Numbered from the stretch's first letter, positions 27,498 through 60,788 are shown. The stretch: DNA of 64,000 bases from Rhodospirillaceae bacterium (GCA_002721365.1 PBKC01000092.1:190-64189); one strand, 5' to 3'. Numbers and translations: made by a program. The notes: generated from the sequence alone by a model not told the origin.

Positions 27498-27523
27498 GTT
27501 ACAATCTGTTACATAAGGTTACA
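27498..27523 (+). promoter_or_regulatory. Three direct GTTACA repeats at exact 10-bp phasing in the ompR-like / copA divergent intergenic region
   Basis: GTTACA at 27498-27503, 27508-27513 and 27518-27523. OmpR-family regulators bind phased direct repeats. The region is AT-rich. Confidence 0.5.
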
Positions 27524-27628
27524 TTTATTTTCTTGTTTCCATTGACCACATTCCCGACTGTCTGCCGGGGTGCCGAGCCGGCGCACGCTTGCGCGCGCCC
27601 CATGGTACAGGCCGATGGAGAGCATGAC

Positions 27629-30396: not shown

Positions 30397-30439
30397 GCGG
30401 CCAAGTCTGTCGAAACGGAACCTGACAAGAGGTGTCCCG

Positions 30440-31051: not shown

Positions 31052-31107
31052 TTTTCCCAGGCCCTGAACAGACCGACACAGAGTCCAACACAGCGGGAGG
31101 AACGGCC

Positions 31108-31509: not shown

Positions 31510-31594
31510 GCCAGCAATCCTTCACGCTCGCCGCGCACGTCCCGGCGACGCCAAGCGTTCCGTCCACACTCAGACTCGTCCGACCGGCGGGGCC

Positions 31595-33661: not shown

Positions 33662-33714
33662 AGAATATTGCGGTTACCTAAAGTAATATTTCCACCTAGT
33701 AAGAGGAGGCTCCA

Positions 33715-43827: not shown

Positions 43828-44622
43828 TCAATCGGTGAAGACGTGGGGACGGTCTGCGCCGGGGTGACGGCCGATGGTGACGGAAACGCCGAAGACGTCG
43901 GCGATCAGGGTCTCGGTCAGGACCGCCCAGGGCGAGCTGTCGGCAACGACGCGGCCGTCCCGCATCACCACGATCCGGTCCGCATAGGTGGCGGCGAGGT
44001 TCGGGTCGTGAAGAACGGCCATTACGCCGAGCCCTTCCTCGGTCAGTCGTCGTGCCGTCCGAAGGATCGTGTGCTGGTGGGCGATATCGAGATTGTTGGT
44101 GGGCTCGTCGAGCAGCAGATAGGCGCGGCCATCGTCTTCGTTCCCGCCGCGGCGAAGGCCGCTGATCTGCGCCAGGGCACGGGCGAACTGCACCCGCTGG
44201 CGCTCGCCGCCCGACAACGTCGTGTACAGGCGATCGGCGAGGTGGAGGATGTCCGCCTCACGCATGGCCTGCTCCGTGATGGCGTAATCGTCGCTGTGCT
44301 CGACCCGGCCGACATGCGGGCTCCGGCCGAGAAGAACCACCTCGAAGGTCCGGAACGGAAAGTTGAGGGTCGAGGCCTGGGGAAGAACCGCCCGCTTCCG
44401 TGCCAGATCGCGTCGGGGCCAGGAGGCGAGCGGCGCATTGTCCAGCGTCACCCGTCCCGAATCCGGAACCACGGCGCCGGACAGGGCATGGAGCATGGTC
44501 GACTTGCCTGCACCGTTGGGACCGATGATCGCGACCATCTCGCCGGGTACGAGCGCGAAGTCGACGCCCTTCAGTATCTCGTTGCCGCCCCGCGACACAT
44601 GAATGGCGTTCGCAGCCAGCAT
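43828..44622 (-). CDS. hmuV: Hemin/iron-siderophore ABC transporter ATP-binding protein (HmuV)
   Basis: Walker A GPNGAGKST, ABC signature LSGGERQRV, Walker B LLLDEPT. The ATG overlaps the hmuU stop. Confidence 0.85.
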   Translation of the reverse strand: MLAANAIHVSRGGNEILKGVDFALVPGEMVAIIGPNGAGKSTMLHALSGAVVPDSGRVTLDNAPLASWPRRDLARKRAVLPQASTLNFPFRTFEVVLLGRSPHVGRVEHSDDYAITEQAMREADILHLADRLYTTLSGGERQRVQFARALAQISGLRRGGNEDDGRAYLLLDEPTNNLDIAHQHTILRTARRLTEEGLGVMAVLHDPNLAATYADRIVVMRDGRVVADSSPWAVLTETLIADVFGVSVTIGRHPGADRPHVFTD

Positions 44623-45698
44623 CACCACGCCCCCATGCCCCGGCGCCGCATGAGGAGCCACAGGAAGAACGGCCCGCCCACGCAGCTTGTCAGAATACCG
44701 ATCGGCAACTCGGCCGGGAGGACCAGCGAACGGGCGAGCAGGTCCGCAATGAGCATCAAGCTGGCACCAAGGAGAGCCGACGCCGGCAGGACCGTGCGAT
44801 GGTCAGGTCCCGCCATCAGCCGGACGAGATGAGGCACCACCAGCCCGACGAAGCCGATGACGCCCGAAATCGCGACCGCCGCACCGACGGCGAGGGCGAC
44901 CAGGACAACGATGACACGCTTGGTCCGCTCGACGTCAAACCCCAGATGCCCGGCTTCGGTCTCGCCCAGCAGGAAGGCGTTGAGCGGCCGCGCCAGCAAG
45001 GGCAGCGCGATTGCCGGCAGGAGGATGAACGGCAGGCTGGTTGCAAGCTGCACCCAGGTGATTCCGCCGAGGCTGCCAAGCAGCCAGTAATTGAGGTCCC
45101 GGAGCTGCTGCTCGTCGCTCATGAAGACGAAGTAGCCGATCCCGGCGGCGGTGATGGCATTGAGCGCGACACCGGCGAGCAGCATGGTGGAGACGTCCGT
45201 CTCTCCGGCTCGGGTCGCGATCTGATAGACGACGAAGGTCGTGGCCACACCCCCGGCGAAGGCCGCGACCGGCAGGCCGAAGCCAGCGGTCAGACTGAGG
45301 AAGGCGCCGCCGAAGACGATCACGGTCGCGGCCGCCAGAGCCGCACCAGTGGATACGCCGATCAGCGCGGGATCTGCGAGCGGGTTTCTGAACAGCCCCT
45401 GCAACGCCCCCCCGCTGATCGCCAGCGCCGTACCGACCAGAACGGCGCCGATCGCCCGCGGCAGGCGGATGCCTGTCAGCACCAAGGCCTGGGCGGGGTC
45501 GTAGGTCCAGGGAAGAGAGAGCCCAACCTTATCGGCAAGGATGGCGAGCACCTGTCCCGGCGCGATCGGGACGGCCCCGTAGCCGACCGACAACACGAAC
45601 ACCACCGCCAGAAGAACGGAAAGGCTCGTCAGAAACAGCTCGCGCTGACCACTGCGGCGAAGGGTCCGTACGCGAGTCACGAGGGTCGCGTCTGCCAT
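44622..45698 (-). CDS. hmuU: FecCD-family hemin ABC permease (HmuU)
   Basis: FecCD permease topology and motifs. Confidence 0.85.
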   Translation of the reverse strand: MADATLVTRVRTLRRSGQRELFLTSLSVLLAVVFVLSVGYGAVPIAPGQVLAILADKVGLSLPWTYDPAQALVLTGIRLPRAIGAVLVGTALAISGGALQGLFRNPLADPALIGVSTGAALAAATVIVFGGAFLSLTAGFGLPVAAFAGGVATTFVVYQIATRAGETDVSTMLLAGVALNAITAAGIGYFVFMSDEQQLRDLNYWLLGSLGGITWVQLATSLPFILLPAIALPLLARPLNAFLLGETEAGHLGFDVERTKRVIVVLVALAVGAAVAISGVIGFVGLVVPHLVRLMAGPDHRTVLPASALLGASLMLIADLLARSLVLPAELPIGILTSCVGGPFFLWLLMRRRGMGAW

Positions 45699-45703
45699 CC
45701 CCG

Positions 45704-46582
45704 TTATCGGCCCAGGACGTTCAGCGTCAGGTCGGGGTGCAGGGCCTCGGCCAGCGCCTGGACAGCCTGGGGCGTCCGGGGGCCGAACCCCAGCAGCAAC
45801 AGCCCGTCCAGGGCGATGAGGCGCCCCTCGGTTCCTGCCGGGGTCGCCGCCAGCTCGGGCCGGGCCAGCAACGCGGCTTCGCCGCCCAGTGCGTCAAGAC
45901 TGCGCTGGTCGATCAAAATGTAATCCGGTGCCGCGGTGACGGCCGCCTCGGGCGACAACGGCATGTAGTCGGTAAAGCCTTCGATGGCGTTGCGGCCACC
46001 GGCCAGTGAGATGATCCCGTCAGCCGCGGTGCCGGCGCCGGCCGCGAGCGGCGCTCCGCTGCCGATCGACAACAGGTAAAGAACGCTCGGCCGATCCTCG
46101 ACCGTCGCGATCTTGTCGCGCAGGGCCGCAAAGTCCTGTTCGAGCTTCGAGGCCAGTTCGTCACCCTCGGACGACAGGCCCAGGGCGTCGGCGACGGTAT
46201 GCACCTTGGCGATGACGCCTTCGGGAGTCGGCTCGTCGGGAACATGAACGACCCGGACGCCCGCCGCGGCGATCTGGTCGAGAACTGTCGGCGGCCCGGC
46301 ATCCTCCACCGCGAGGACGATCGACGGCGCCATGGCCAGGATCGGTTCCGCGGCCAACTGCCGCATATAGCCGACGTCCGGGAACGCGCGCGCGGAGTCG
46401 GGATAAAGGCTGGTGCTGTCGACCGCGATCAGGCCGCTGTCGGCCCCAAGCGCATAGACGACCTCGGTGACCGCCCCCCCGACGGAGACGATCCGGTGCG
46501 CATCCTCCGCCGCCCGAACCTTGGCATGCGGAAGGGCGGCCGCGACCAGAACGGCCGCAGCCACCAACCACTTTCGGTGCAT
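45704..46582 (-). CDS. hmuT: Periplasmic hemin-binding protein (HmuT-like, cluster A-II SBP)
   Basis: Signal peptide. HmuT-like fold motifs. The start overlaps the hmuS stop (ATGA). Confidence 0.8.
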   Translation of the reverse strand: MHRKWLVAAAVLVAAALPHAKVRAAEDAHRIVSVGGAVTEVVYALGADSGLIAVDSTSLYPDSARAFPDVGYMRQLAAEPILAMAPSIVLAVEDAGPPTVLDQIAAAGVRVVHVPDEPTPEGVIAKVHTVADALGLSSEGDELASKLEQDFAALRDKIATVEDRPSVLYLLSIGSGAPLAAGAGTAADGIISLAGGRNAIEGFTDYMPLSPEAAVTAAPDYILIDQRSLDALGGEAALLARPELAATPAGTEGRLIALDGLLLLGFGPRTPQAVQALAEALHPDLTLNVLGR

Positions 46583-47652
46583 CAAGCCGTCCCCGCGACC
46601 CGCGACAGGCTCGCGAGAAGCGCCCGCCATTCCTCGCGCTCGGCCGCCCCGCGATCGCGCTGCCCGAACATCCAGGCGATCTGGCTGTCATTGGCGTCGA
46701 AGATTTCGAGCGAGGAGATGATCCCTTCCCGCGTCGGTTTGCGCAGCACCCAGGCCGACGCGATACCCTCGTCCCGCAGGTGCAGGTTGAAACCCTTGTC
46801 CAGCACGTTGAACCACGGCCCCACCCGCTTCAGGTTGGTGACCGGGCCGGTGTGGATCTGAACGACACCGGGGCTCGGCACGAACACCATGATCGGGATT
46901 TCCTGGCTCGCCGCCTGCTGCAACGTCTCGACGAAGCTCGACACCGGCACCGCCTCGGCGAATTCGGGTCCCACCAGGCGGCAGGCCTGGACGCGATCGA
47001 CATCGAGGTCCCGCAGCATCATCGCGAAGTCGTGGACGTCCTGCAGACCGCGCCAGCGCGCGCGCAGGGCATCGACATCGATCTCGGAATCGGGGCGCGC
47101 GGACGCCGGAGCGGCCGGCGGTTCCACCCGCTGGCCCGGCCTCTGATCGGCGGTCTTGTGCCGCTCGACCAGGGCATCGTATGCGGCGGCGTCGGTCTCC
47201 TCACGAACGTGGACCTTGAACACCGCCGTCCCCGTAGGACCGAAGAACTGCAGGCTGCGACGCGGACCGGACGGTCCCTGGTCGGTGACAGCGAAACCCG
47301 AACCCCAGGCCGACCAGCGAACGCGGAGATCGATATCGGCTCCGAGCACCAATGCCCCGACATCGCTGACCGACACCGCCTCGAACGTCCCGACCTTTTC
47401 ATGGACGGCGAAGTCGTTGCGGGTCAGCACCATGACCGGCCCCAACGCCGGCAGGGCTTCCAGAAGCTCGCTCCAGCGGCCGTCGAGACGGGTTACGTCA
47501 CCGCCGCAGCGTGCGGCAACCAGTTCCGCCTCGCTGACGCCCAGCTTCTCGGCGGCATCGCGCGCGCGGAGGCTGCCTTCCGACTGTTTGAGCTGCTGAT
47601 AGCGGTCGAGAAGGGCCGACGGGTCGGCGGCAGGCACATTATTCTGATCCAT
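46582..47652 (-). CDS. hmuS: Hemin degrading/transport protein HmuS/ChuS/PhuS family
   Basis: Two-repeat ChuS-family architecture. N-terminus ...LRARDAAEKLGVSEAELVAARCG. Confidence 0.85.
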   Translation of the reverse strand: MDQNNVPAADPSALLDRYQQLKQSEGSLRARDAAEKLGVSEAELVAARCGGDVTRLDGRWSELLEALPALGPVMVLTRNDFAVHEKVGTFEAVSVSDVGALVLGADIDLRVRWSAWGSGFAVTDQGPSGPRRSLQFFGPTGTAVFKVHVREETDAAAYDALVERHKTADQRPGQRVEPPAAPASARPDSEIDVDALRARWRGLQDVHDFAMMLRDLDVDRVQACRLVGPEFAEAVPVSSFVETLQQAASQEIPIMVFVPSPGVVQIHTGPVTNLKRVGPWFNVLDKGFNLHLRDEGIASAWVLRKPTREGIISSLEIFDANDSQIAWMFGQRDRGAAEREEWRALLASLSRVAGTA

Positions 47653-47681
47653 GGATCGTTCTCCCACTGACGTCGTATGCG

Positions 47682-49838
47682 TTACCAACGCTGCGTGTAG
47701 CTCACGAGCGCCTTGTAGTTGCGGCCGGGTTCACGCGACGTGGTGAAGACCCGGTCGTAGGCTTTGTCGAAGACGTTATCGATGCCGAGATCGAGACGAA
47801 GGCCGGCGAGCGGCCCCTGCGCGGGCTGCCAGGCGTAAAAGATGTCGTGGACGGCGTAGCCCCCACGGATTTCGGCCGGGTCCGTGGTCTTGTCGAACTC
47901 GCTGGCTGCGATCATCCGCCACCCTGCCACCGAGTCGAATTCAGGCAGCTTGAGCGCGGCATCTACGGTGAGTTCCGGCGGGGTGAGGACACCGAGTTTC
48001 TCGCCGGTGATCTCGTTCTCGCCGTCGACGGTCGAGAAGCCGAGCCCCAACCGCAGGCGGTCGTCCTCATAGCTCATTTCGACCTCCGTGCCCCGCAGCT
48101 CCGCCTGGGGCACGTTGACCGACCGCGTCGTCCCGTCGCAGGAGCCCGGAACGACGATCGGATTACAGTCGACGAAGGGTTCGGGCTGGATCACGTCGAG
48201 GTCGATGAAGTCCTCGCCCTTGATCCGATAGTGCGAAACCTTGACTTCGAAATAGTCCCCCGGCGTGACGACGTCCTGGAAATTGAAACCGCCGCCGAAT
48301 TCGAAGGTCTTGGTCTTCTGGGGACGAAGGTCGGGGTTGGCGACGAAGCGGTTGACGATCCCCAGGAACAGCGGGAAGTGGATGCCGTCGAGGAACAACT
48401 CGTCGACCGCCGGCGCACGGAACGCCTTGCCGTAATTGGCGAACAGCAGGGACCACGTGGTCGGCATGTAGCTGACGCCGATCCGCGGCGAAACCGCCTG
48501 GTCCTCGTTCCCGGACGAGATCGCGCTGGTCGCCTCGTAGTGGTCGTAGCGGATGCCGGGGATGATCACCGCCTCGCCCGGCAGAACGCCGAGCGGCCGG
48601 CTCATCTTTACCTCGGCCTGGCTGTAGACGCCGAAGAACTCGGTCTCGGCATCCGGCACGCCGTCGCGCGGGCCTCCGCCAGCCGCCCCGGCTTGCTTGT
48701 CTCCATATCCTTCCATGCCATAGGTGAAGGTGACTCCCGCCGTCTCGCCGAGCATGAAGCGCGAGCGGTTGTCGATCCGGAAGCCGGTCGTGTCGACGTC
48801 GCGTTCCAGAAGTTCACCCGCGGGCCCGAGGCCGTTGCCGTCAAGCCGAAGCTCGTCCGCCCGCGTCGCCGTGTAGTAGAGCACCGCGTCCAGATTGACG
48901 AGGTGGTTGCCCGGATCGTCATAGCGGTAGGACAGCCGCCAGTTGTCGGAACGGATGTCCTTCTCGACGAGGTTCGTATCGCCGGCGCCCTGGCCGTTGT
49001 TGGGTTCCTCAGCATCGTTGTCGAAGCGCTGGAAGGACGCCTCCACATGATGAAAGTCGGCCACCTCGACGCCGGCCTTGAACAGTGCGGAGACGATATC
49101 GTCGTCACTGCGGTCGCGCTTGGTCCCGTCGCCGAGTTCAATGGAGCCGGACGCCCGCCGGGTGACGCTTGCGACGATGTCCAACTCGTCGGTGGGGCGG
49201 CCGAATACGGTCACGGTACCGACCTTCTCCCGGTTCACCGACTGATAGCCGGTACTGACCGAGTAGCCGTAGCGCTCCCACGGCGAGAGAAAATCCTCGG
49301 CGTTCACGGTCCGCAGCGCGATCACGCCACCCGTCCCGCCACTGCCGTAGAGCGACGACGACGATCCGCGCAGCACCTCGACCTCACGAAGCAGGCTGGG
49401 ATCGATGAAGAAGCGCCCGTCGTGGCCGGCGTTGAAGTTCTGTCGCGCGCCGTCCAGGAGGACGACGACATCGGGGCCGCTGAATCCGCGGATGCTCGGC
49501 ACCTCGCCGGTCCGGCGCGGCCCACCGGCGAACTCGACGCCGGGCACCAGCTTCAGAACGTCGTCGGGAGATGATGCCATCTGGCTGAGGATGCGGTCAC
49601 GCCCTACCACCGAAACCATACCCGGAAACGAGAACGTCCTGACGGGGTTGAGCGTGGCCGTTACGGATACGGTTCCGAGCCTGAGTGGCTCCGCGCCTTC
49701 GGTATCGGTGGTCGCCGCCATACCGGATTCCGCTTCAGCCGGCTTCGCTTCGTCTGCGGTCTGAGCGAACCCAACCGTCAGGGGGGCGCAGACGCCAAGC
49801 ATCAGAGCCGCGCTGCCGACAACACTTTTGTTCATCAT
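47682..49838 (-). CDS. hmuR: TonB-dependent heme/hemoglobin outer-membrane receptor (HmuR-like)
   Basis: Signal peptide, plug and barrel. Heme-receptor FRAP (GKAFRAPAVDELF) and NPDL (NPDLRPQK) boxes. Terminal aromatic ...YTQRW. The antisense ORF 47847-49574 is rejected. Confidence 0.85.
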   Translation of the reverse strand: MMNKSVVGSAALMLGVCAPLTVGFAQTADEAKPAEAESGMAATTDTEGAEPLRLGTVSVTATLNPVRTFSFPGMVSVVGRDRILSQMASSPDDVLKLVPGVEFAGGPRRTGEVPSIRGFSGPDVVVLLDGARQNFNAGHDGRFFIDPSLLREVEVLRGSSSSLYGSGGTGGVIALRTVNAEDFLSPWERYGYSVSTGYQSVNREKVGTVTVFGRPTDELDIVASVTRRASGSIELGDGTKRDRSDDDIVSALFKAGVEVADFHHVEASFQRFDNDAEEPNNGQGAGDTNLVEKDIRSDNWRLSYRYDDPGNHLVNLDAVLYYTATRADELRLDGNGLGPAGELLERDVDTTGFRIDNRSRFMLGETAGVTFTYGMEGYGDKQAGAAGGGPRDGVPDAETEFFGVYSQAEVKMSRPLGVLPGEAVIIPGIRYDHYEATSAISSGNEDQAVSPRIGVSYMPTTWSLLFANYGKAFRAPAVDELFLDGIHFPLFLGIVNRFVANPDLRPQKTKTFEFGGGFNFQDVVTPGDYFEVKVSHYRIKGEDFIDLDVIQPEPFVDCNPIVVPGSCDGTTRSVNVPQAELRGTEVEMSYEDDRLRLGLGFSTVDGENEITGEKLGVLTPPELTVDAALKLPEFDSVAGWRMIAASEFDKTTDPAEIRGGYAVHDIFYAWQPAQGPLAGLRLDLGIDNVFDKAYDRVFTTSREPGRNYKALVSYTQRW

Positions 49839-51738: not shown

Positions 51739-53289
51739 CTAGTCCGCGTCTTCCTTTTCGGCCAGCCATGCCTCGACCTCGTGGCGCTGGATCTTACCGG
51801 TAGTGCTGCGCGGAAAATCCGCGAGGGCGACGAAGCGCACGGCCTTCGGCCGCTTGTAGCCGGCGAGATGTTCGCGACAGCGCGCCAGCAGGGTATCGGC
51901 GTCTAGTGATTCGTCGTGGCGTGCCACCACCGCCACCGGCACCTCGCCCCATTGCGGGTCGGGACGGCGCACGACCACCGCGTCGGCGACGCGCGCATCG
52001 GCCAGCAGCACCCGCTCGATCTCGGCCGGATAGACGTTCTCGCCGCCGGTCTTGATCATGTATTTGGCCCGATCGACGAAATCCAGGGTGCCGTCCGGGT
52101 TGCGGCGGAACATGTCGCCCAGATGGAACCAGCCGCCACGGAAATCCCGCACGTTGGTCTCGTCCGCACGCCAATAGCCGCTGAACAGCGTCGGTCCGCG
52201 AAAGGCGAGTTCACCCGGATCGCCGTCGGGCACGTCGTTGTCGTCGTCGTCGACCAGGCGAATTTCACAAAGCGAGCTCTGGCGCTTCGACAGGCCGGCG
52301 GGAATGACGCCCGGCGGAATCATGACGCCGGAGGCCGGCGGAATCCCCGTCTCGGTCGACCCGAAGCTGTTGAGGTACGGCGCGCCGAGCGCCCGCGTAA
52401 CGTCGGCGATCTGCTTCAGCGGCACCAGGTCGGCCATCGCCCCCATCACCTTGATGCCGCGCGGCTTGGCCCCCGCCGCCACGGCCACCTCGGCCATCCG
52501 CTCCACCGTTCCCGGCACCAGGACGAACCAGCTCACGGGCAACTCGTTCAGGATCTCGATCAGGCGTTCGGGGTCGAAGCCGTCGACCATCGACACCCGC
52601 CCGCCGATCAGCAGGCTGCCGATCGCGAGGTCGGTGGACGCCATGTGGAACATCGGCGCCCAGGCGGGAAAGCAGTCGCCGATGCCGACGCCGAAATCGG
52701 CGCAGTAGACCTGGACGCGGGCGATGAAGGCGCGGTGGCTGATCACCGCCCCTTTGGGTCGACCGGTCGTGCCGCTGGTGTAGAGGATGACGAGACCGTC
52801 CTCGGGCTCGGCCACATCGTCGGGCTCGCTCTCGGCGGCGGCGGCGAGACGCGCTTCGTAATCCTCGCCGATCGTCACCACCGTCTCCGCTCCATGGTCG
52901 ATCGCTGCAGCGGCGTCGACGAAGCGCGGCGAGACGACCAGCACCTTGGGCTCCGTCAGGCGAATGCAGTATTCGAGCTCCTCGCCCGCCAGCCGCCAAT
53001 TCTGGGCGGCGACAATGGCGCCGAGCTTGGCGGCAGCGAACTCGAGTTCGACATATTCGGCGCAGTTTTCCGCAAGAATCGCGATCCGGTCGCCGCGGAC
53101 GATGTCGAGCGCCGCCAGGGCATGGGCCAGCCGGTTCACCCGGTTGTTGAATGCGGCATAGGTCCAACGGCGCGGCCCGTCCTCCAGCGCGATAGCATCG
53201 CCCCGAATACGGACCTGCTCACGAAGCAGGCCGCCCACGGTTGCAATCGAGGCACGACGGATAAGGACGCTGGGATCGGTTTCGGGCAT
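51739..53289 (-). CDS. AMP-dependent acyl-CoA synthetase/ligase
   Basis: AMP-binding signature YTSGTTGRPKG and the C-terminal domain of the ANL superfamily. Confidence 0.85.
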   Translation of the reverse strand: MPETDPSVLIRRASIATVGGLLREQVRIRGDAIALEDGPRRWTYAAFNNRVNRLAHALAALDIVRGDRIAILAENCAEYVELEFAAAKLGAIVAAQNWRLAGEELEYCIRLTEPKVLVVSPRFVDAAAAIDHGAETVVTIGEDYEARLAAAAESEPDDVAEPEDGLVILYTSGTTGRPKGAVISHRAFIARVQVYCADFGVGIGDCFPAWAPMFHMASTDLAIGSLLIGGRVSMVDGFDPERLIEILNELPVSWFVLVPGTVERMAEVAVAAGAKPRGIKVMGAMADLVPLKQIADVTRALGAPYLNSFGSTETGIPPASGVMIPPGVIPAGLSKRQSSLCEIRLVDDDDNDVPDGDPGELAFRGPTLFSGYWRADETNVRDFRGGWFHLGDMFRRNPDGTLDFVDRAKYMIKTGGENVYPAEIERVLLADARVADAVVVRRPDPQWGEVPVAVVARHDESLDADTLLARCREHLAGYKRPKAVRFVALADFPRSTTGKIQRHEVEAWLAEKEDAD

Positions 53290-53462
53290 TTCGTCTCAGC
53301 CTTCAGGAACGACTCTTCGCCGCCCGTATATACGAAGCCGCGCGCCTCACGGCAAAGTTTGCGGCGCAAGGCCGTAGGCATCCTCTATAATCGACGGCAA
53401 AAGGCCCCGGAGGCCGCCGATCCCGGATCACGGGACGACGATGATCATGGGAGAGAAACCGC

Positions 53463-54257
53463 ATGCCGATTTCGAGATTGCTGATCGCCGTCACGGCTCT
53501 GACCATTTTCGCATCTGGGGCTGCAGACGCCGCAGCACCGTCCGATCCGCTTCGTTCCCCCGGCTGGGAGAGCATCGTCGAGACCTTCTTTCCCCAATCG
53601 GAGATCCTGTTCGACGATCGGGTGGAAGTGGTCATGCCGACGCGGGTCGAGGACGCCCATGACGTCCCGATGGCGGTCAAGCTGTCGGCGGAGCTCGGTC
53701 ATGTCCGCGAGATCGTCGTCATCGCCGAGAACAATCCGATCCAGCAGGTGGCACGTCTCTACCCGCACCGGCCGTTGAAGGCGATCGGCCTCAAGATCCG
53801 CCTCGAATCGACGACCCCCGTACGCGCCGCGGCCCTGACCGACGATGGCGTCTGGCATGTGGGCTCGACGGCGGCCGAGGTGCTCACCCCTGGTGGCTGC
53901 TCGGTCCCCGACAACCGGGTAGCCGACGAGGTGAGCGACCGGCTGGGCGAGATCGCCTTCAAGACCTTCGACCGCGACGACGGCAGCGCCCGGCTCAAGT
54001 TCCGCATCATCCACCCCATGCAGACCGGCTTCGCGGTAAGCGAGGACGGCGAATACATCCCCGCCTATTTCCTCGAACAGATGCGGATCGGCGACGGCGA
54101 CGGGCCGGTGGTCGACATCGAGAGCCGCGCCGCGATGGCGCCGGACCCCATCGTCACCATCGACGTACCGGAGCTGGGCCAGACTATCCGCATCCAGGCC
54201 CGGGATAGCCAAGGCCTGGAGTTCGAGACCAAGGACGCCGACGAACCGTCGATGTAA
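53463..54257 (+). CDS. Periplasmic SoxY/SoxZ-like fusion protein (quinoprotein dehydrogenase-associated SoxYZ-like carrier)
   Basis: Signal peptide. The N-terminal half ends with a SoxY-like Cys motif (LTPGGCSVPD). The C-terminal half is SoxZ-like. Adjacent MBL and pqq genes. Confidence 0.5.
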   Translation: MPISRLLIAVTALTIFASGAADAAAPSDPLRSPGWESIVETFFPQSEILFDDRVEVVMPTRVEDAHDVPMAVKLSAELGHVREIVVIAENNPIQQVARLYPHRPLKAIGLKIRLESTTPVRAAALTDDGVWHVGSTAAEVLTPGGCSVPDNRVADEVSDRLGEIAFKTFDRDDGSARLKFRIIHPMQTGFAVSEDGEYIPAYFLEQMRIGDGDGPVVDIESRAAMAPDPIVTIDVPELGQTIRIQARDSQGLEFETKDADEPSM

Positions 54258-54264
54258 GGCCGGT

Positions 54265-55260
54265 ATGCGCGCCTTCTCGTTTCTCGGCCTCGTCACCGCC
54301 CTCGTTCTCACCGTTTTCGCTGCTGGCGAACTGCGGGCTCAGGGCATGGGCGGTGGCGATCCCGGCCGCCGCGGCTACACCTACGGGCTGTCGCCGGAGG
54401 AGATCGCCCCCGGCGTCTACGTGTTCTGGGGTGCGCAGGAACCGATGACGCCTGAGAACGGCGCCAACATCGTCAACACCGGCTTCATCGTCGGCGACGA
54501 GTCCGTGCTGGCCATCGACACCGGGCCGACCCGCCTCTATGGCGAGGAGATGCTGGCCACGATCGCCAAGGTCACCGACAAGCCGGTGCGGATGGCGGTG
54601 GTGACCCATCATCACTTCGACCACGCCTTCGGGATGAGCGTCTTCAAGAAGGCCAATATCCCGACAATGATGCATTTCGGGGCAAGGCCGCTGCTGCTCC
54701 GCGACGGCAGCGGCGTCCTCCAGTTCATGGAGATCCTTGTCGGGGCCAACTGGGTGAGCCGGATCGAGGTCGACCGGCCGACCCGTGTCACCAACCGAGT
54801 CGAGACCTTCGACTTGGGCAATCGCAAGGTCGTCGTCACGCCCTTCGAGAACGGCCACACGCCGGGCGATCTCGTTATCTATGACGAGAAAACGAAGACG
54901 CTGTTCGCCGGCGACCTCGCCTTCGTCGGACGGACGCCCACCATCCCCCACGCCGACATCCCGACCTGGCTCGACCAGATCGACATCATCGAGGCGATGC
55001 CCTGGGATCGGCTGGTGCCGGGCCACGGCCCCCTGGTCACCGACCGCGCCCAGCTAACGCCGATGGCCGACTATCTCCGCTATCTCGACGACTACGTGAA
55101 GCGGGCGGTGGCCAACGGCGAAACCCTCGCCGACAGTCTCGACCCCCCGCCGCCGGAACGATTCCGCGACCTCGCCGAGATCGGCGTCGAATACCAGCGG
55201 GCACTTCTCAAGCTGTTCCGCGACGTCGAGCGCCAGGAACTCGACACGACGGTGCGCTGA
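54265..55260 (+). CDS. Periplasmic metallo-beta-lactamase-fold zinc hydrolase (quinoprotein relay system zinc metallohydrolase-like)
   Basis: Signal peptide. MBL motif VVTHHHFDHAFG plus downstream His/Asp ligands (GHTPGD, PGHGP). Confidence 0.75.
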   Translation: MRAFSFLGLVTALVLTVFAAGELRAQGMGGGDPGRRGYTYGLSPEEIAPGVYVFWGAQEPMTPENGANIVNTGFIVGDESVLAIDTGPTRLYGEEMLATIAKVTDKPVRMAVVTHHHFDHAFGMSVFKKANIPTMMHFGARPLLLRDGSGVLQFMEILVGANWVSRIEVDRPTRVTNRVETFDLGNRKVVVTPFENGHTPGDLVIYDEKTKTLFAGDLAFVGRTPTIPHADIPTWLDQIDIIEAMPWDRLVPGHGPLVTDRAQLTPMADYLRYLDDYVKRAVANGETLADSLDPPPPERFRDLAEIGVEYQRALLKLFRDVERQELDTTVR

Positions 55261-55267
55261 GGGCGCT

Positions 55268-56260
55268 TTACTCCTCCGCCGTCCCCACCGGCACCCGCGC
55301 TTCCATCGGCAGGGCCGGATCGGCGGACCATTCGGCGAGGGAGCCGTCGTAGATCACCGCTTCGTCGTTCCCCATCAGTTCGTGGGCGACGAACCAGCCG
55401 AGTGAGCTTTCCAGCCCTGAGTTGCAGAAATAGATGACCCGGCCGGTGGTCGGCACGCCAGCCGCCGCGAACAGGGTGTCGAGATCATGGCCAGTACGGA
55501 ACACCAGCCCACGATCGACGGTGAGCCAGGTGAGCGGCAGGTTGAGCGCCCCCGGCAGCGTGCCGGGGCGAGCAGTGATCGGCTCCCGGTTGACGCCCAA
55601 GAAGTAGTCCGTCGCGCGCAAGTCGACATGGGGCGTGCCGGCAGCGAGCGCCGTCTCCACCGCCGCCTTGTCGACCACCACACCGGCTGCCGGCTCGGCG
55701 TCGAAAACAGTCGGCTCCGGTGTCCGGTCGCCCGTCTCGACATCATTTTGCCAGTCGGCGATCCAGGCCGGAAAACCGCCGTCGAGGATCGAGACCCGTT
55801 TGAGGCCGGCCACCTTCATGATCAGGTACATCCGCGTCGTCTCGGCGGCGGAGACGTCGTCCAGGGACGTATTGTAGAGGACGACATGGCTGTCGCCGGC
55901 GATGCCGAGCCCGCCGATCAGCTTTTCGAGCTGCGGCCGCGGCGGGATCATCATCGGCACGCCGCCGACATGAGCGCGCCAGCCGTCTTCGTAGAAATTC
56001 GTGTAGACCGCGCAGGGGACGTGGCCGACCCGGTAGTCGTCCCGCGAGCGCCGCACATCGACCACGACGAGGCCGGATTCGCAGAGGTGTTCCGACAGCC
56101 AGGAGACGGCGACGAGCGGCCCCGGATAATTCGAATCCGTTTCCGCCGCCGCTTGGCCGGCAATGAACGAAATCACTGCGGAAAAGGCGGAAAAAACGGC
56201 GAAAAACGCGGCTATCCGCTTCGCCACATTCGGAAAACTGATCCGGACTATAGCTTTCAT
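55268..56260 (-). CDS. Secreted tandem-rhodanese sulfurtransferase (TST/MST-like)
   Basis: Signal peptide. Two rhodanese domains, the second carrying the active-site Cys loop (FCNSGLESS). Confidence 0.8.
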   Translation of the reverse strand: MKAIVRISFPNVAKRIAAFFAVFSAFSAVISFIAGQAAAETDSNYPGPLVAVSWLSEHLCESGLVVVDVRRSRDDYRVGHVPCAVYTNFYEDGWRAHVGGVPMMIPPRPQLEKLIGGLGIAGDSHVVLYNTSLDDVSAAETTRMYLIMKVAGLKRVSILDGGFPAWIADWQNDVETGDRTPEPTVFDAEPAAGVVVDKAAVETALAAGTPHVDLRATDYFLGVNREPITARPGTLPGALNLPLTWLTVDRGLVFRTGHDLDTLFAAAGVPTTGRVIYFCNSGLESSLGWFVAHELMGNDEAVIYDGSLAEWSADPALPMEARVPVGTAEE

Positions 56261-56334
56261 CCCCGCGGAAAACGCCTAAGTAAGACCCTGCCGGCTCGGA
56301 CCGGCCCAAGAAGCATCAAGCTGGAGGAAACCTT

Positions 56335-56412
56335 ATGTGGACCAAGCCCGTCATCCATGAAGTGGCCGTCGGCCTCGAGATCAACTGCTACGCCTGCGCC
56401 GAGCTCGGCTGA
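56335..56412 (+). CDS. pqqA: PQQ precursor peptide PqqA (25 aa)
   Basis: MWTKPVIHEVAVGLEINCYACAELG carries the conserved E-x3-Y crosslink pair. GGAGGA RBS 7 nt upstream. Immediately precedes pqqB. Too short to appear in the ORF track. Confidence 0.8.
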   Translation: MWTKPVIHEVAVGLEINCYACAELG

Positions 56413-56465
56413 CGGCGGATGGCCGTCCGCGGCCATCCTGATGACGACCAGCGCAGGAAACCAGC

Positions 56466-57395
56466 ATGCATATTCGCGTTCTCGGCGCCGCCGCCGGCGG
56501 GGGCTATCCGCAGTGGAACTGTAATCACCCCAACAGCCGGCGCGCCCGGTCGAAGGACCCCGCCGCGAGGCAGCGCACGCAGTCGTCGATCGCGGTGAGC
56601 GCGGACGGCGTCGACTGGTTCCTGTTCAACGCCTCACCCGACCTTCGTCAGCAGATCAACGACAACGATGTCCTGCATCCCAAGGACGGCCTGCGCCACA
56701 GCCCGATCAAGGGCGTGGTGCTGACCAATGCCGACGTCGACCATGTCGCCGGCCTGCTGAACCTGCGGGAGTCCCAGCCGCTGGAACTCTACGCCACCAG
56801 CCGGGTGATCCAGGTTCTGCAGAACAACACCATCTTCAACGTCCTCAATCCGCAGTTCGTCGATCGCCACCCGATCAAGCTCGACGAGCCGGTGTCGTTG
56901 AAGAAGCCCGATGGCAGTGACAGCGGCATCGTCGTGGTGCCCTTCGCGGTGCCGGGCAAGGTGGCGCTGTGGCTGGAGGATGCGAGCAAGGGGCCTGATT
57001 TCGGCTCGGTCGAGGAAGACACCATCGCGCTGGAGGTCCGCAACGCCGAGGGCCAGACGGTCTTCTTCTACATCCCCGGCTGCGCCAGGGTGCCGGACGA
57101 ACTGGCGGACCGCCTGCGCGGTGCACCGCTGGTGTTCTTCGACGGCACCCTGTGGGTCGACGACGAGATGATCCGCTCGAACGTCGGCGTGAAGACGGGC
57201 AAGCGCATGGGCCATATGAGCGTATCCGGCGAGGACGGCACCATCGCCGCGTTCCGCGACCTCGGCATTGATCGCAAGATCTTTATCCACATCAATACGA
57301 CCAACCCGATCCTGCTGGAGGATTCGCCCGAGCGCGCCGCGGTTACCGAGGCGGGTTGGGAAGTCGCTTACGACGGCATGGAGATACGGGTATGA
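56466..57395 (+). CDS. pqqB: PQQ biosynthesis protein PqqB (MBL-fold)
   Basis: HIRVLGAAAGGGYPQWNCN...NADVDHVAGL is a PqqB signature. Confidence 0.9.
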   Translation: MHIRVLGAAAGGGYPQWNCNHPNSRRARSKDPAARQRTQSSIAVSADGVDWFLFNASPDLRQQINDNDVLHPKDGLRHSPIKGVVLTNADVDHVAGLLNLRESQPLELYATSRVIQVLQNNTIFNVLNPQFVDRHPIKLDEPVSLKKPDGSDSGIVVVPFAVPGKVALWLEDASKGPDFGSVEEDTIALEVRNAEGQTVFFYIPGCARVPDELADRLRGAPLVFFDGTLWVDDEMIRSNVGVKTGKRMGHMSVSGEDGTIAAFRDLGIDRKIFIHINTTNPILLEDSPERAAVTEAGWEVAYDGMEIRV

Positions 57396-58174
57396 CCTTC
57401 GCTGTTCCCCTGGTCGACGAATCGGCCACCGCGGCCGGTAAGGAGCCGCTGACCGAGGATGAATTCCTCGCAGCCCTGATGAAGATCGGCGAAGAGCGCT
57501 ATCACAGCCTCCACCCGTTCCATAAGCTGCTGCACGGCGGCAAGCTGAACTACGGCCAGGTGCAGGCCTGGGCGGTGAACCGCTTCTATTACCAGCTCAG
57601 CATCCCGCGGAAGGACGCGGCGCTGATCTCCAGGCTTCACGACCACAAGCTCCGCCGCCTGTGGCGCAGCCGGATCATCGATCATGACGGCGACGAGCAG
57701 AACGAAGGCGGCATCGAGCGCTTCCTGCATCTGACCGACGCGCTGGGCCTCGACCGCGAGTACATCCTCTCGACCCGCGGCATCCTGCCCGGCACCCGCT
57801 TCGCGGTCGAGGCCTACGTCAACTTCGTCCGCGAGCGATCCATCCTCGAGGCGATTGCCTCGTCACTCACCGAACTGTTCGCGCCCGCGATTCACGAGGA
57901 ACGCATTGCCGGCTTGCTGAAGCATTACGACTTCGCCAACGACGTGACGCTCTCCTATTTCCGCAAGCGCCTGACCGAGGCCCGCCAGGACGTCGAGTTC
58001 GGCCGTGCCTACGTGCTGACCCACGCCAAGACCCGCGACCAGCAGGAAGCGGTGCTGAACGCGGTGCGCTTCAAGACCGACGTGCTGTGGTCGCAGCTCG
58101 ACGCGCTGCACTTCGCCTATGTCGAGCCGGCGTTGATCCCCCCCGGCGCCTTCGTGCCCGAGGATCGCAAGTGA
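57392..58174 (+). CDS. pqqC: Pyrroloquinoline-quinone synthase PqqC
   Basis: PqqC motifs (HPFHKLLHGGKLNYGQVQAWAVNRFYYQ). The ATG overlaps the pqqB stop. Confidence 0.9.
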   Translation: MTFAVPLVDESATAAGKEPLTEDEFLAALMKIGEERYHSLHPFHKLLHGGKLNYGQVQAWAVNRFYYQLSIPRKDAALISRLHDHKLRRLWRSRIIDHDGDEQNEGGIERFLHLTDALGLDREYILSTRGILPGTRFAVEAYVNFVRERSILEAIASSLTELFAPAIHEERIAGLLKHYDFANDVTLSYFRKRLTEARQDVEFGRAYVLTHAKTRDQQEAVLNAVRFKTDVLWSQLDALHFAYVEPALIPPGAFVPEDRK

Positions 58175-58458
58175 GCGAACGCACCATCCTCACCGAGGAC
58201 AGCGTTCCCAAGCTGCCCCGCCACGCCAAGCTGCGCTTCGACAAGCCGCGCGACAAGTGGATCATCCTCGCGCCCGAGCGGGTGTTCGAGCTCGATCCGA
58301 TCGCGTCCGAAGTCGTCAGATTGTGCGACGGCAGCAAACCCGTGAACGAGGTGGTCGACACCCTGGCCGCCAAGTACGAGGCCCCGCGCGACGTCATCGC
58401 CAAGGACGTCATCGACATGCTGCAGGGCCTCGCAGACAAGGGATTCGTAGTGACATGA
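58171..58458 (+). CDS. pqqD: PqqD peptide chaperone
   Basis: PqqD-like (WIILAPERVFELDPIASEVVRLCDGSKPVNEVVDTLAAKY). The GTG start overlaps the pqqC stop. Confidence 0.85.
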   Translation: MSERTILTEDSVPKLPRHAKLRFDKPRDKWIILAPERVFELDPIASEVVRLCDGSKPVNEVVDTLAAKYEAPRDVIAKDVIDMLQGLADKGFVVT

Positions 58459-59597
58459 ACGACATGACACTGGTTGCCGACAAGCCCGAGACCAAGCCGG
58501 CGAAGAAGGCGGTCGGCGTTCCCTACGCGGTGCTGGCGGAGCTCACCCACCGCTGCCCGCTGCAGTGCCCCTACTGCTCGAACCCGGTCGAGCTGGAGCG
58601 CGCGGGGAACGAGATCGACACCGAGACCTGGAAGCGCGTCATCGACGAGGCCGAGGCGATGGGCATCCTGCATGTCCACTTCTCGGGCGGCGAGCCGACC
58701 GTGCGGAAGGACCTCGAGGAGCTGGTGGCCCACGCCGCCGAGCGCGGTCTCTACACCAACCTCATCACCTCGGCTGTCCTGCTGGACGAGAAACGCCTGA
58801 TGGGCCTTCGCGACGCCGGTCTCGACCACGTCCAGATCAGCTTCCAGGGCACCGACGCCGATCTCGCCAACCGCGTCGCCGGCTTCAAGGGCCACGCCAA
58901 GAAGCTCGAAGTCGCGCGGCTGGTCCGCAAGGCCGGCCTGCCGCTCACCGTCAACGCGGTGATGCATCGGCAGAACCTGCACCAGCTCCGCTCGATGATC
59001 GACATGGCGGTCGAGCTGGATGCCGAGCGGCTGGAGGTCGCCCAGGTCCAGTACTACGGCTGGGCGCTCAAGAACCGCGACGCCTTCCTGCCGACCCGCG
59101 AGCAGCTCGACGAGGCGACCGCCATCGTCGAGGAAGCGCGCGTGCGCCTGAAAGGCATCCTCGCCATCGACTACGTCGTTCCCGACTACTACGCCCAGCG
59201 ACCGAAGTCGTGCATGGGCGGCTGGGGGCGCCAGTTCCTGAACATCACCCCGGCCGGCAAGGTGCTGCCCTGCCACGCCGCCGAGTCGATCCCCTCGCTC
59301 GAGTTCGACAACGTCAAGGACAAGAGCCTCGCCTGGATCTGGGAGAACTCCTCGGCGTTCAACAAGTATCGCGGCACCGACTGGATGCCGGAGCCTTGCC
59401 AGTCCTGCGACCGCCGCGAGATCGACTGGGGCGGCTGCCGCTGCCAGGCCTTCGCGCTGACGGGCGACGCCGGCAACACCGACCCGGCCTGCGCCAAGTC
59501 GCCGCAACGCGACGTCCTTCGCGATCCGCTGGAGGCCGCGCGGACCATCGACGAAAACGACCTGCCGGACTTCGTCTACCGCCGCATCGGGGGATAA
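58455..59597 (+). CDS. pqqE: Radical SAM PQQ biosynthesis enzyme PqqE (with SPASM domain)
   Basis: CPLQCPYC radical-SAM cluster motif. C-terminal SPASM Cys (CMGGWG...CHAA...CQSCDRRE...GGCRCQA). The ATG overlaps the pqqD stop. Confidence 0.9.
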   Translation: MNDMTLVADKPETKPAKKAVGVPYAVLAELTHRCPLQCPYCSNPVELERAGNEIDTETWKRVIDEAEAMGILHVHFSGGEPTVRKDLEELVAHAAERGLYTNLITSAVLLDEKRLMGLRDAGLDHVQISFQGTDADLANRVAGFKGHAKKLEVARLVRKAGLPLTVNAVMHRQNLHQLRSMIDMAVELDAERLEVAQVQYYGWALKNRDAFLPTREQLDEATAIVEEARVRLKGILAIDYVVPDYYAQRPKSCMGGWGRQFLNITPAGKVLPCHAAESIPSLEFDNVKDKSLAWIWENSSAFNKYRGTDWMPEPCQSCDRREIDWGGCRCQAFALTGDAGNTDPACAKSPQRDVLRDPLEAARTIDENDLPDFVYRRIGG

Positions 59598-59933: not shown

Positions 59934-60788
59934 ATGGCGACAATGGCTTCTCCATCACCCGATCGCGAAGAGCAGGCGAACGACTGGCAGCAGCGCGCGC
60001 CCGCCTGGACGCGCTGGGCCGGCACGATGGAGCGGATGGCGGACCGCTTCAATCAGCCGCTGCTCGACGCGGCTGGAATCGCCGACGGTCAGACGGTGCT
60101 GGATCTCGCATCCGGCGCCGGGGAGCCTGCGCTCAGCATCGCTCGCCGCGTCGGTCCCTCAGGCCACGTGACCGCTACGGACCTCGTCCCTGAAATGCTG
60201 GACGGGATCGAACGACGGGCTCAAGCGGCGAACCTCTCGAATCTATCGGTCCGCGAAAGTGATATGCAGGCGCTTCCGTTCGAAGACGAAAGCTTCGACC
60301 GTGTCGTCTGCCGATTCGGAATCATGTTCAGCCCGGACGAGGGCAAGGCCCTTTCGGAGGCCCTGCGGGTGCTGAAGCCCGGTGGACGGGCCGCATATAT
60401 GGTTTGGGGCCCCCTGGAAGACACGACGGTGTTCGTGGTGTTGCAGTCGACCGTGCGCCGCTTTCTGGGCGACCAGTCGCCACCGGCCGCCCTGCCGCAG
60501 TTCCGCTTCGGCCCGGCCGGGAGCCTCGCTTCGGTATTCGAAGCCGCGGGCTTCACCGATGTCGCCGAGCAGGAGCTCCGCTTCCACCCGCGTCCCGAAG
60601 CCGGCAGCGGGTTCTGGCGGCCGCAGCTCGACATGTCGTTCGGCCACCGCATTCGCCATCTCTCTTCGGAGGAACGTCAGGCGCTCGACGCGACCATCGA
60701 CAACGCATTCGAGATGTACCGGGAGGACGACGTTTACCGTCTGACCGCCCACATCCGCATCGTCACGGGCGACAAGGCGAAAGAGTAG
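59934..60788 (+). CDS. Class I SAM-dependent methyltransferase
   Basis: Motif I VLDLASGAGEP. Post-I acidic residue. Motif LKPGGRAAY. Confidence 0.8.
   Translation: MATMASPSPDREEQANDWQQRAPAWTRWAGTMERMADRFNQPLLDAAGIADGQTVLDLASGAGEPALSIARRVGPSGHVTATDLVPEMLDGIERRAQAANLSNLSVRESDMQALPFEDESFDRVVCRFGIMFSPDEGKALSEALRVLKPGGRAAYMVWGPLEDTTVFVVLQSTVRRFLGDQSPPAALPQFRFGPAGSLASVFEAAGFTDVAEQELRFHPRPEAGSGFWRPQLDMSFGHRIRHLSSEERQALDATIDNAFEMYREDDVYRLTAHIRIVTGDKAKE

Follow-up and report, generated by a model that had tools for sequence, protein, structure and literature searches.

Why should genes for a SoxYZ-like carrier protein, a metallo-beta-lactamase (MBL)-fold hydrolase and a secreted tandem rhodanese stand directly upstream of the operon for biosynthesis of pyrroloquinoline quinone (PQQ)? 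The question is raised by a 64-kb stretch of DNA of about 65% GC from a Rhodospirillaceae bacterium (GCA_002721365.1, PBKC01000092.1:190-64189), hereafter the window, in which positions are counted from the first letter. The original prediction, made from the sequence alone, read the three genes as a periplasmic sulfane-sulfur or persulfide relay genetically linked to quinoprotein dehydrogenase function. Comparative analysis shows that the locus brings together two separately inherited units, a carrier-hydrolase pair and a rhodanese-pqq block, and their products may take part in a sulfur-adduct maintenance cycle; we assign this combined explanation a probability of about one half. Its parts differ in strength: we are highly confident of the gene identities and the two-block anatomy, whereas a mechanism that services PQQ enzymes by removing sulfur adducts is a tentative best guess.

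Genes of the locus

The features on which the analysis rests are as follows.

53463-54257, plus strand: SoxY-SoxZ fusion carrier, 264 aa (TIGR04557; Pfam SoxY and SoxZ)
53892-53900, plus strand: GGC motif, aa 144-146, with the codon of Cys146, the presumed carrier thiol, at 53898-53900
54265-55260, plus strand: SoxH-like di-metal MBL-fold hydrolase, 331 aa (Pfam Lactamase_B; best family TIGR04558)
54607-54624, plus strand: HHHFDH (HxHxDH metal motif), aa 115-120; further ligands H198 (54856), D217 (54913) and H254 (55024)
55268-56260, minus strand: tandem-domain rhodanese, secreted as judged by sequence, 330 aa from ATG 56260 or 319 aa from GTG 56227; two Pfam Rhodanese domains
55424-55426, minus strand: codon of Cys279 in the loop FCNSGLES, aligned with the catalytic Cys of 1RHD
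56228-56256, plus strand: promoter-like motif ATTCGGAAAACTGATCCGGACTATAGCTT in the rhodanese-pqqA divergent intergenic region
56335-56412, plus strand: pqqA, 25-aa precursor peptide with an E-x3-Y motif, read directly as MWTKPVIHEVAVGLEINCYACAELG
56466-57395, plus strand: pqqB (TIGR02108, 408 bits, above cutoff)
57392-58174, plus strand: pqqC (TIGR02111, 379 bits, above cutoff)
58171-58458, plus strand: pqqD (TIGR03859, 76.5 bits, above cutoff)
58455-59597, plus strand: pqqE (TIGR02109, 588 bits, above cutoff)
59934-60788, plus strand: UbiE/ArsM-like S-adenosylmethionine-dependent methyltransferase (Pfam Methyltransf_25/Ubie_methyltran)

A direct check of the open reading frames (ORFs) found the carrier, MBL and rhodanese genes at exactly these coordinates, all three with a strong coding-type GC content at third codon positions (GC3 of 0.82-0.88); the start codons of pqqB-pqqE were also checked. 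The MBL gene begins 7 bp after the carrier stop codon and the two genes form a two-gene operon; the rhodanese gene meets the MBL gene tail to tail, with the stop codons 7 bp apart, and is transcribed away from pqqA. Each of the three proteins opens with a hydrophobic stretch (12-aa Kyte-Doolittle mean of 2.3-2.6) followed by an AxA-type site, and is predicted from its N-terminus to be exported. Thus the original description of the locus, three signal-peptide proteins directly followed by pqqABCDE, namely a SoxY-SoxZ fusion with an internal GGC, an MBL-fold protein with HHHFDH and an opposite-strand double rhodanese with an active-site Cys, was borne out in each of its details.

Two separately inherited blocks

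Mapping of the window genes onto related genomes revealed a conserved backbone, bounded by genes for NnrU and an acyl-CoA ligase (AMP-ligase) on one side and for an MsbA-like ABC transporter and a LysM protein on the other, in which one or both of two cassettes are found. Block 1 consists of the SoxYZ-like and MBL genes, and block 2 of the rhodanese gene with the divergent pqqABCDE operon and the UbiE/ArsM-like methyltransferase gene. Both blocks are present in the window and in three related loci (L081, L082 and L085). The backbone of L165 holds block 2 only, and block 1 of the same genome is 2.1 Mb distant, with a PQQ dehydrogenase gene about 8 kb from it; in L173 and L001 the backbone holds block 1 only, and in the genome of L173 block 2 is found about 190 kb away, beside a PQQ dehydrogenase gene. 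The rhodanese-pqq block also occurs in other flanks (L166, L167 and L168/169). The rhodanese is therefore inherited with the pqq operon, and not with the carrier-hydrolase pair, among related marine Alphaproteobacteria, and the juxtaposition of the pair with the rhodanese-pqq block is real but lineage-specific. Nevertheless, every pair among the carrier, a rhodanese-fold protein and PQQ genes recurs somewhere, which is more than expected of unrelated housekeeping genes.

The rhodanese gene is divergent beside pqq(A)BCDE in eight loci (L081, L082, L085 and L165-L169; 47-83% identity), and its other flank is occupied by the MBL-SoxYZ pair, an acyl-CoA ligase, a PQQ dehydrogenase, a peptide deformylase or a dioxygenase gene. 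The adjacency persists even across an insertion sequence (IS). The pqqA peptides are near-identical in seven related loci, and the motif ATTxGxAA...GACTATAGCTT is invariant in six, where the flanking DNA has otherwise diverged; at 56228-56256 of the window it is probably the promoter or an operator of pqqA. A scan of 53200-56600 for the sigma-70 consensus and intrinsic terminators yielded nothing and is uninformative for a high-GC alphaproteobacterium. Since the ATG at 56260 stands 4 bp past the end of the motif, within the conserved promoter-like region, GTG 56227 may be the true start of the rhodanese; it also yields a more typical signal peptide (MAKRIAAFF...).

A methyltransferase gene comes after pqqE throughout the related loci. 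It follows pqqE directly, overlapping it or at a distance of at most 18 bp, in L082 (17066-17899), L165 (4581-5420), L166 (5693-6550) and L168 (3654-4505), and therefore is probably co-transcribed with it. The gap is 336 bp in the window, and in L081 pqqE is separated from the methyltransferase gene by the insertion of a toxin-antitoxin pair and two further genes. We know of no described role of a methyltransferase in PQQ biosynthesis.

The junctions of the blocks appear recombination-prone. Insertions of mobile or addiction modules were seen at three places in these loci: a ParDE pair between the MBL and rhodanese genes in L082 (11937-12517), an IS with an rve domain between pqqB and the rhodanese gene in L165 (8933-9975), and a PhdYeFM-PIN pair after pqqE in L081 (14679-16743).

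Association of the carrier-hydrolase pair with PQQ dehydrogenases

A scan for carrier relatives, with one genome per species, gave more than 550 loci, of which the best 80 were analysed. The MBL gene stands immediately downstream of the carrier gene in 61 of these 80 loci and a PQQ dehydrogenase gene of the methanol/ethanol family within 10 kb of it in 50, whereas pqq biosynthesis genes occur within 10 kb in only two, so that linkage of the pair to the pqq operon is unusual. The proposed genetic link of the relay to quinoprotein function accordingly holds for the pair, which is tied to PQQ dehydrogenases, but has to be amended for the locus as a whole: it is the rhodanese that is tied to pqqABCDE, and the two units are separable. 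The same counts do not bear out the notion that these might be unrelated housekeeping genes, and neither does the invariance of the carrier and rhodanese cysteines in their homologues described below.

The vicinal Cys-Cys motif is present in 56 of 56 PQQ-dehydrogenase ORFs neighbouring the pair, and the lanthanide-type DxD in 45 of the 56. In a typical cluster, that of Marinobacterium (L083), the genes are, in order, those for a TIGR03865 rhodanese-like protein, an ABC transporter, a beta-propeller protein, a binding protein, a cytochrome c, a MoxJ-type protein, the SoxYZ-like carrier, the MBL and the PQQ dehydrogenase. This closeness is not a feature of the window, where the nearest PQQ dehydrogenase gene lies 38 kb from the carrier gene in a cluster of its own.

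13217-15127, plus strand: PQQ-dependent methanol/ethanol-family dehydrogenase (TIGR03075, 645 bits, cutoff 480)
15124-15996, after the dehydrogenase gene: MoxJ-type binding protein (TIGR03871, 302 bits, cutoff 212)
15993-16628, after the MoxJ-type gene: c-type cytochrome

Direct reading of the dehydrogenase revealed the vicinal Cys-Cys at aa 148-149 (GVACCDVVNRG) and a lanthanide-type D-Y-D at aa 342-344 (LYDYDG). A small cytochrome c gene (12665-13012, minus strand) also flanks it, and next to this region are a caa3-type cytochrome oxidase cluster (COX2 10616-11881, COX1 8668-10788, COX3 8058-8762, CtaG 6804-7580) and a LuxR-type response regulator gene (5086-5718).

The pair is a divergent member of the catalogued 'quinoprotein dehydrogenase-associated carrier / relay metallohydrolase' system. 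Both families had been described in the original prediction as quinoprotein dehydrogenase-associated, and this is correct: the carrier belongs to TIGR04557, and TIGR04558 is the best match of the MBL, though under its cutoff. The families are already catalogued and their quinoprotein association is published. In the ped cluster of Pseudomonas putida KT2440, PP_2666 (rhodanese domain), PP_2677 (SoxYZ fusion) and PP_2678 (SoxH-like hydrolase) are conserved accessory genes of lanthanide/PQQ alcohol dehydrogenases, and META1p1703-1705 are the corresponding genes of Methylobacterium extorquens (PMC12997753). Comparable arrangements have been noted for Hyphomicrobium, lucinid symbionts and Rhodobacterales (for the latter, PMC5934484), and the trio of a rhodanese-domain protein, a SoxYZ fusion and a SoxH-like hydrolase is thus already known as a PQQ accessory set. 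Disulfide formation, cofactor stabilisation and protection of PQQ from sulfur species have been put forward as hypotheses for the ped trio, and the statement that no mechanism is assigned to the pair still holds in the literature of 2026 (PMC12997753).

The window resembles the ped cluster in the carrier family, in the same kind of MBL gene immediately downstream, in a rhodanese-fold protein nearby, in the predicted export of all three proteins and in the presence of a lanthanide-type CC PQQ dehydrogenase in the genome. It differs in the rhodanese, which is of the tandem type of thiosulfate and 3-mercaptopyruvate sulfurtransferases (TST/MST) with a classical catalytic Cys, whereas the ped-type protein is a single-domain TIGR03865 'CxxxCW' protein; in the MBL, which falls under both curated cutoffs; and in the position of the genes, beside pqqABCDE and not inside a dehydrogenase cluster.

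The occurrence of the Cys-Cys motif in all 56 dehydrogenases beside the pair, and in the window enzyme, raises the possibility of thiol-disulfide maturation, in which the carrier Cys and the rhodanese Cys, acting via a sulfenate or persulfide, would form or re-form the strained Cys-Cys, with the MBL resolving dead-end adducts. In overexpressed E. coli PspE a rhodanese Cys acts through a sulfenate or persulfide in disulfide formation. On the other hand, neighbouring cysteines are routinely joined by DsbA, it is not obvious what a hydrolase would contribute to forming disulfides, and the NosR-like context of a related rhodanese in L018 (see below) suggests electron supply, that is, reduction and not oxidation. 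A review of the ped cluster proposes disulfide formation or cofactor stabilisation and points out that the M. extorquens operon includes a gene for a thioredoxin-like protein, but calcium-type CC enzymes work in organisms without the module (PMC12997753). We regard disulfide maturation as an unlikely function of the three proteins.

The SoxYZ-like carrier and the MBL hydrolase

The carrier scored 175.5 bits against NCBIfam TIGR04557 (cutoff 140) over profile positions 1-226 of 226, and the NCBI name of the identical protein agrees with this assignment. Its SoxY and SoxZ domains span residues 42-146 and 172-256. Cys146 is the sole Cys of the protein; G144, G145 and C146 are invariant in 25 of 25 homologues (32-89% identity), and so is an HPMxTG motif in their SoxZ domains. 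In a profile of these homologues Cys146 is aligned with the sulfur-carrying GGC Cys of crystallised SoxY (4UWQ_B, 2OX5_Y). The SoxY domain of the AlphaFold2 model (predicted local distance difference test score, pLDDT, of 88.5) superposes on 2OX5_Y/4UWQ with a template modelling (TM) score of about 0.8; model confidence falls only near residues 141-160, which fits a mobile arm and linker.

Compared with the SoxYZ proteins of Sox systems (Paracoccus pantotrophus, 2OX5; Thermus, 4UWQ), the carrier has the same SoxY and SoxZ folds and a GGC thiol that ends the SoxY domain at the same alignment position. However, it is one fused polypeptide with an internal Cys (GGCS..., then a variable linker), whereas SoxY has a free C-terminal GGCGG arm, and it scores far under the cutoffs of true SoxY (TIGR04488, 43.8 against 125) and true SoxZ (TIGR04490, 38.1 against 76). 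Carrier genes are multiplied in tandem before a single MBL gene in L014 (three genes, 8464-10747) and L012 (two genes, 10001-11544), and several genomes have two or three separate SoxYZ-MBL loci.

The MBL scored 273.9 bits against TIGR04558 (quinoprotein relay system zinc metallohydrolase 1), its best NCBIfam match, under the cutoff of 300, and 200.3 bits against TIGR04559 (quinoprotein relay system zinc metallohydrolase 2), under the cutoff of 280. It is placed in a sister clade of these PQQ-linked groups, and the identical NCBI protein is named only 'MBL fold metallo-hydrolase'. The seven di-metal ligands H115, H117, D119, H120, H198, D217 and H254 are invariant in 28 homologues, and the protein has no Cys. 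The nearest Foldseek matches of its AlphaFold2 model (pLDDT 91) are 8D2Z, an MBL from Burkholderia, 6UXU (Chd, the chlorothalonil hydrolytic dehalogenase), the MBL domains of the alkylsulfatases SdsA1 and PisA1, and B1/B2 beta-lactamases; 8D2Z is an uncharacterised structural-genomics entry, for which the literature gave only irrelevant matches. With its binuclear site complete and conserved, this protein is most economically read as a hydrolase.

Some MBL-fold enzymes are persulfide dioxygenases, and the original prediction drew on this analogy for the window protein. It finds no support: no persulfide dioxygenase is named among the top 60 PDB sequence matches or the top 50 Foldseek matches, the nearest folds being those just given. 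An ETHE1-type persulfide dioxygenase was set aside as a candidate for these reasons and on account of the complete, invariant binuclear ligand set.

A closer parallel is SoxH, the periplasmic MBL of some sox clusters, which is also encoded beside xoxF5 in Rhodobacterales (PMC5934484; PMC10045233) and has been proposed to hydrolyse sulfonate from SoxY (PMC10045233). SoxH shares with the window protein the periplasmic MBL fold, the HxHxDH di-metal site and a gene position beside a SoxY-type carrier and/or an XoxF-type dehydrogenase; the window MBL differs in its placement in the sister clade of the TIGR04558/04559 groups, and the function of SoxH is itself a proposed one.

Do these homologies point to an energy-conserving pathway, either Sox-type sulfur oxidation or one based on a persulfide dioxygenase? 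Such a pathway would be in keeping with the relationship to SoxY, SoxZ and SoxH, and with a rhodanese encoded alongside. However, the carrier misses the true SoxY and SoxZ models by a wide margin, no SoxXA, SoxB or SoxCD was found among about 45 scanned coding ORFs of the window, the MBL is unlike persulfide dioxygenases in the respects described above, and the genes linked to the pair elsewhere are those of alcohol oxidation. True Sox lithotrophy was set aside on the first two grounds, and pathways of this kind are very improbable here.

Linkage to alcohol oxidation suggests a different function, an aldehyde relay, in which the carrier Cys would trap the toxic aldehyde product of the PQQ alcohol dehydrogenase as a thiohemiacetal, the dehydrogenase would oxidise it to a thioester, and the MBL would hydrolyse the latter like glyoxalase II, freeing the acid; the rhodanese would be unrelated or serve in thiol repair. 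It would account for the tight and wide linkage of the pair to genes for PQQ dehydrogenases of the methanol/ethanol family and for the cytochrome c and MoxJ-type proteins that go with them, and for the word 'relay' in the curated family name. The MBL thioesterase 7l0b (hydroxyacylglutathione hydrolase, glyoxalase II) is a detectable, if weak, sequence relative of the window MBL (E = 3e-9), but glyoxalase II is outside the top 50 structural neighbours. The recruitment of two rhodanese families is left unexplained by such a relay, and a SoxYZ-like, rhodanese and NosR-like cluster exists without dehydrogenase or MBL genes. In the literature, PQQ-linked SoxYZ fusions have been argued to act in carbon and not sulfur metabolism (PMC11237559), yet P. 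putida strains mutated in the homologous genes show normal growth on alcohols (PMC12997753). The aldehyde relay seems to us improbable.

The tandem rhodanese

Examination of the rhodanese placed it among tandem-domain TST/MST-type proteins, and a sulfurtransferase activity is predicted. Its Cys279 is aligned with the catalytic Cys of bovine rhodanese 1RHD (E = 3e-23) and is invariant in 28 of 28 homologues; homologues in the PDB include 1RHD and 1URH. The best NCBIfam match is the SseA/3-mercaptopyruvate sulfurtransferase equivalog NF008557, with 102.2 bits against a cutoff of 250, so the protein is not a member of that group. Like 1RHD, E. coli SseA (1URH) and the periplasmic rhodaneses of a Thiobacillus cluster, it is built of two domains, the C-terminal one bearing the catalytic Cys, but it differs from TST/MST proteins in its predicted export, in its distance from the SseA cutoff and in the linkage of its gene to pqq or SoxYZ-like genes. 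The active-site loop is CNSGLES, as against CNTGHWA in the sulfur-oxidiser clade; TST and MST have CRKGVTA and CGSGVTA, respectively.

The rhodanese-like protein of canonical PQQ clusters is of a different kind. Members of TIGR03865 (PQQ-dependent catabolism-associated CXXCW motif protein) have a single rhodanese-like domain with the motif C-x-x-D-C-W-M-[SA]-W-N (C-x3-C-W). The window rhodanese has no match to this model, and BLASTP against a true member (L083, 1417-1992, 195 bits to the model) gave E = 1.0; orthology to the ped-cluster rhodanese was rejected on both grounds. No ORF anywhere in the window contains C-x-x-D-C-W; about 17 other loci do have such an ORF, and there it is often the next gene after that of the MBL.

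A reciprocal scan with the rhodanese profile covered metagenome contigs and gave 80 loci, only three of which had a SoxYZ-like neighbour, all three among the closest relatives (at least 50% identity). Twelve of 15 loci with the loop CN(S/A)(G/A)(L/F)ES are linked to pqq or SoxYZ genes, two of the other three being on contigs shorter than 2 kb, whereas none of about 72 loci with CNTGHWA-type loops is so linked; the former loop thus marks a pqq/SoxYZ-linked rhodanese subclade. The window protein has 42-47% identity to homologues from sulfur oxidisers, and a Thiobacillus homologue with a CNTGHWA-type loop is encoded within a YeeE/TusA/rhodanese/cytochrome c sulfur cluster.

A second architecture was observed in L015 (8184-11058), L018 (6053-10371), L086 and L088, all lower-GC marine alphaproteobacterial contigs, in which a SoxYZ-like gene is convergent with a gene of the same rhodanese subclade and a NosR-like gene follows. 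The NosR-like protein is a membrane FeS/flavoprotein of 798 aa (NF046105, 543 bits, under the cutoff), and no MBL or PQQ gene was found near these four clusters. The GC3-based gene filter was adequate for the window at 65% GC and not for L015 and L018 at 50% GC, where ORF lists and Pfam were used. In L087 the rhodanese gene is instead accompanied by ApbE and the same 500-aa amidohydrolase genes. Genes for small single-domain rhodaneses (118-130 aa) lie a few kb from the rhodanese-pqq block in L167 (3993-4385) and L168 (10756-11112); that of L167 directly follows pqqE, where other loci have the methyltransferase gene.

These distributions bear on a further explanation of the locus, namely that there is no functional trio: the pair would be the known dehydrogenase accessory module, the rhodanese a general periplasmic thiosulfate or cyanide sulfurtransferase, and their position inherited synteny in one lineage. 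The blocks separate freely, mobile elements lie between the genes (ParDE in L082 and the IS in L165), and the rhodanese and MBL genes are convergent; 75 of the 80 metagenomic rhodanese relatives have no SoxYZ, MBL or pqq neighbour, and only two of the 80 SoxYZ loci are near pqq genes. Against this explanation, the rhodanese keeps its place beside pqqA in at least four contexts that differ in both outer flanks, and even across the IS insertion; the same loop-defined subclade is paired independently with SoxYZ-like genes away from pqq; and the canonical system, too, has a rhodanese-fold protein. We therefore consider mere synteny unlikely, if slightly less so than the aldehyde relay or disulfide maturation.

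A possible sulfur-adduct maintenance cycle

PQQ is electrophilic at C5, and the vicinal Cys-Cys disulfide of PQQ alcohol dehydrogenases is strained. In the maintenance cycle that we favour, a sulfur species (persulfide, S-sulfonate or thiosulfonate) would be placed on, or exchanged with, Cys146 of the carrier in the periplasm, the persulfide of rhodanese Cys279 being its donor or acceptor. The di-metal hydrolase would then strip the adduct and so reset the arm of the carrier, in the way that SoxB, and putatively SoxH, acts on SoxY. Such a cycle might keep PQQ and the Cys-Cys disulfide from damage by sulfur nucleophiles, or mature them; it would serve maintenance or maturation, as opposed to energy conservation by a Sox pathway. 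The protein families, conserved residues, export signals in the sequences, gene linkage and block structure are observed; which adduct is carried, which way it is transferred, what the hydrolase acts on and what benefits from the cycle are steps that we infer; the periplasmic sulfane-sulfur relay of the original prediction is, as an inference, a reasonable one.

Several observations argue for sulfur chemistry in this system. Two unrelated rhodanese-fold families have been recruited to it, TIGR03865 in about 17 loci and the tandem type in the window. The linked rhodanese subclade also pairs with SoxYZ-like and NosR-like genes where neither a PQQ gene nor an MBL gene is present, and the CN(S/A)GLES loop separates linked from other rhodaneses (12 of 15 against 0 of about 72). 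Distant homologues belong to the Thiobacillus sulfur cluster, and alkylsulfatases are among the nearest MBL folds. The proposed hydrolysis of sulfonate from SoxY by SoxH (PMC10045233) and the disulfide-maintenance and PQQ-protection hypotheses already voiced for the ped trio (PMC12997753) point in the same direction.

Other observations weigh against such a cycle. The blocks are separable, and the rhodanese gene, being convergent with the MBL gene, is not co-transcribed with the pair, so that the adjacency may be historical. All rhodanese-pqq loci come from one alphaproteobacterial group, and most were chosen for genomes with SoxYZ/MBL homologues, which limits the independence of the rhodanese-pqq link. 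The MBL misses both curated cutoffs for relay metallohydrolases, and among the annotated or scanned ORFs of the window none was found for a sulfur donor, a sulfite-producing enzyme or a Sox protein. In random barcode transposon-site sequencing (RB-TnSeq) disruption of the P. putida homologues had minimal effects during growth on alcohols, although lanthanides were absent, and the module is missing from many organisms with Cys-Cys PQQ dehydrogenases, e.g. P. aeruginosa (PMC12997753).

A bolder proposal is that the CN(S/A)GLES rhodanese and the divergent pqqABCDE-methyltransferase operon form a functional unit, so that in these marine Alphaproteobacteria making or keeping active PQQ or PQQ enzymes would require a periplasmic sulfur-transfer step, with the Cys arm of the SoxYZ-like protein as acceptor and the SoxH-like hydrolase resetting it. 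This we consider doubtful, and clearly less probable than the maintenance cycle in its general form. If true, it would represent an undescribed pathway of quinoprotein cofactor maintenance or repair, and would explain the recruitment of two unrelated rhodanese families to PQQ systems.

Three features of the system look new, as no report of them was found in full-text literature searches: the classical tandem rhodanese in place of the canonical TIGR03865 partner, the block-wise linkage of a rhodanese to pqqABCDE and the methyltransferase gene, and the variant with SoxYZ-like, rhodanese and NosR-like genes. The search aimed at the rhodanese-pqqA link gave nothing relevant. The SoxYZ-like, SoxH-like and rhodanese genes are among the last unexplained conserved parts of lanthanide/PQQ alcohol-dehydrogenase clusters, which underlie methylotrophy, volatile-alcohol turnover and rare-earth biology. 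The locus sets two usable constraints on their function. First, the role of the rhodanese can be filled by an unrelated classical tandem sulfurtransferase, which argues for real sulfur or thiol chemistry and not for a structural role. Second, this tandem sulfurtransferase is tied to the PQQ biosynthesis operon in some loci, and to a SoxYZ-like carrier and a NosR-like electron-transfer protein in others. If the link is functional, it suggests a periplasmic cycle of protein-bound sulfur in the service of a redox cofactor.

Other genes in the window

The remainder of the window includes a gene at 37523-38851 (plus strand) for a 442-aa protein with an unusual sensor-cyclase architecture, in which a 2Fe-2S ferredoxin domain at the N-terminus is joined to an adenylate/guanylate cyclase catalytic domain and a globin at the C-terminus. 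Two further clusters are unrelated to the above findings. A haem-uptake cluster at 43828-49838 (minus strand) encodes a TonB-dependent receptor, HemS/ChuX, a periplasmic binding protein, a FecCD permease and an ABC ATPase, and a copper-resistance set at 26682-34578 encodes a response regulator, a multicopper oxidase, CopB and a P-type ATPase.

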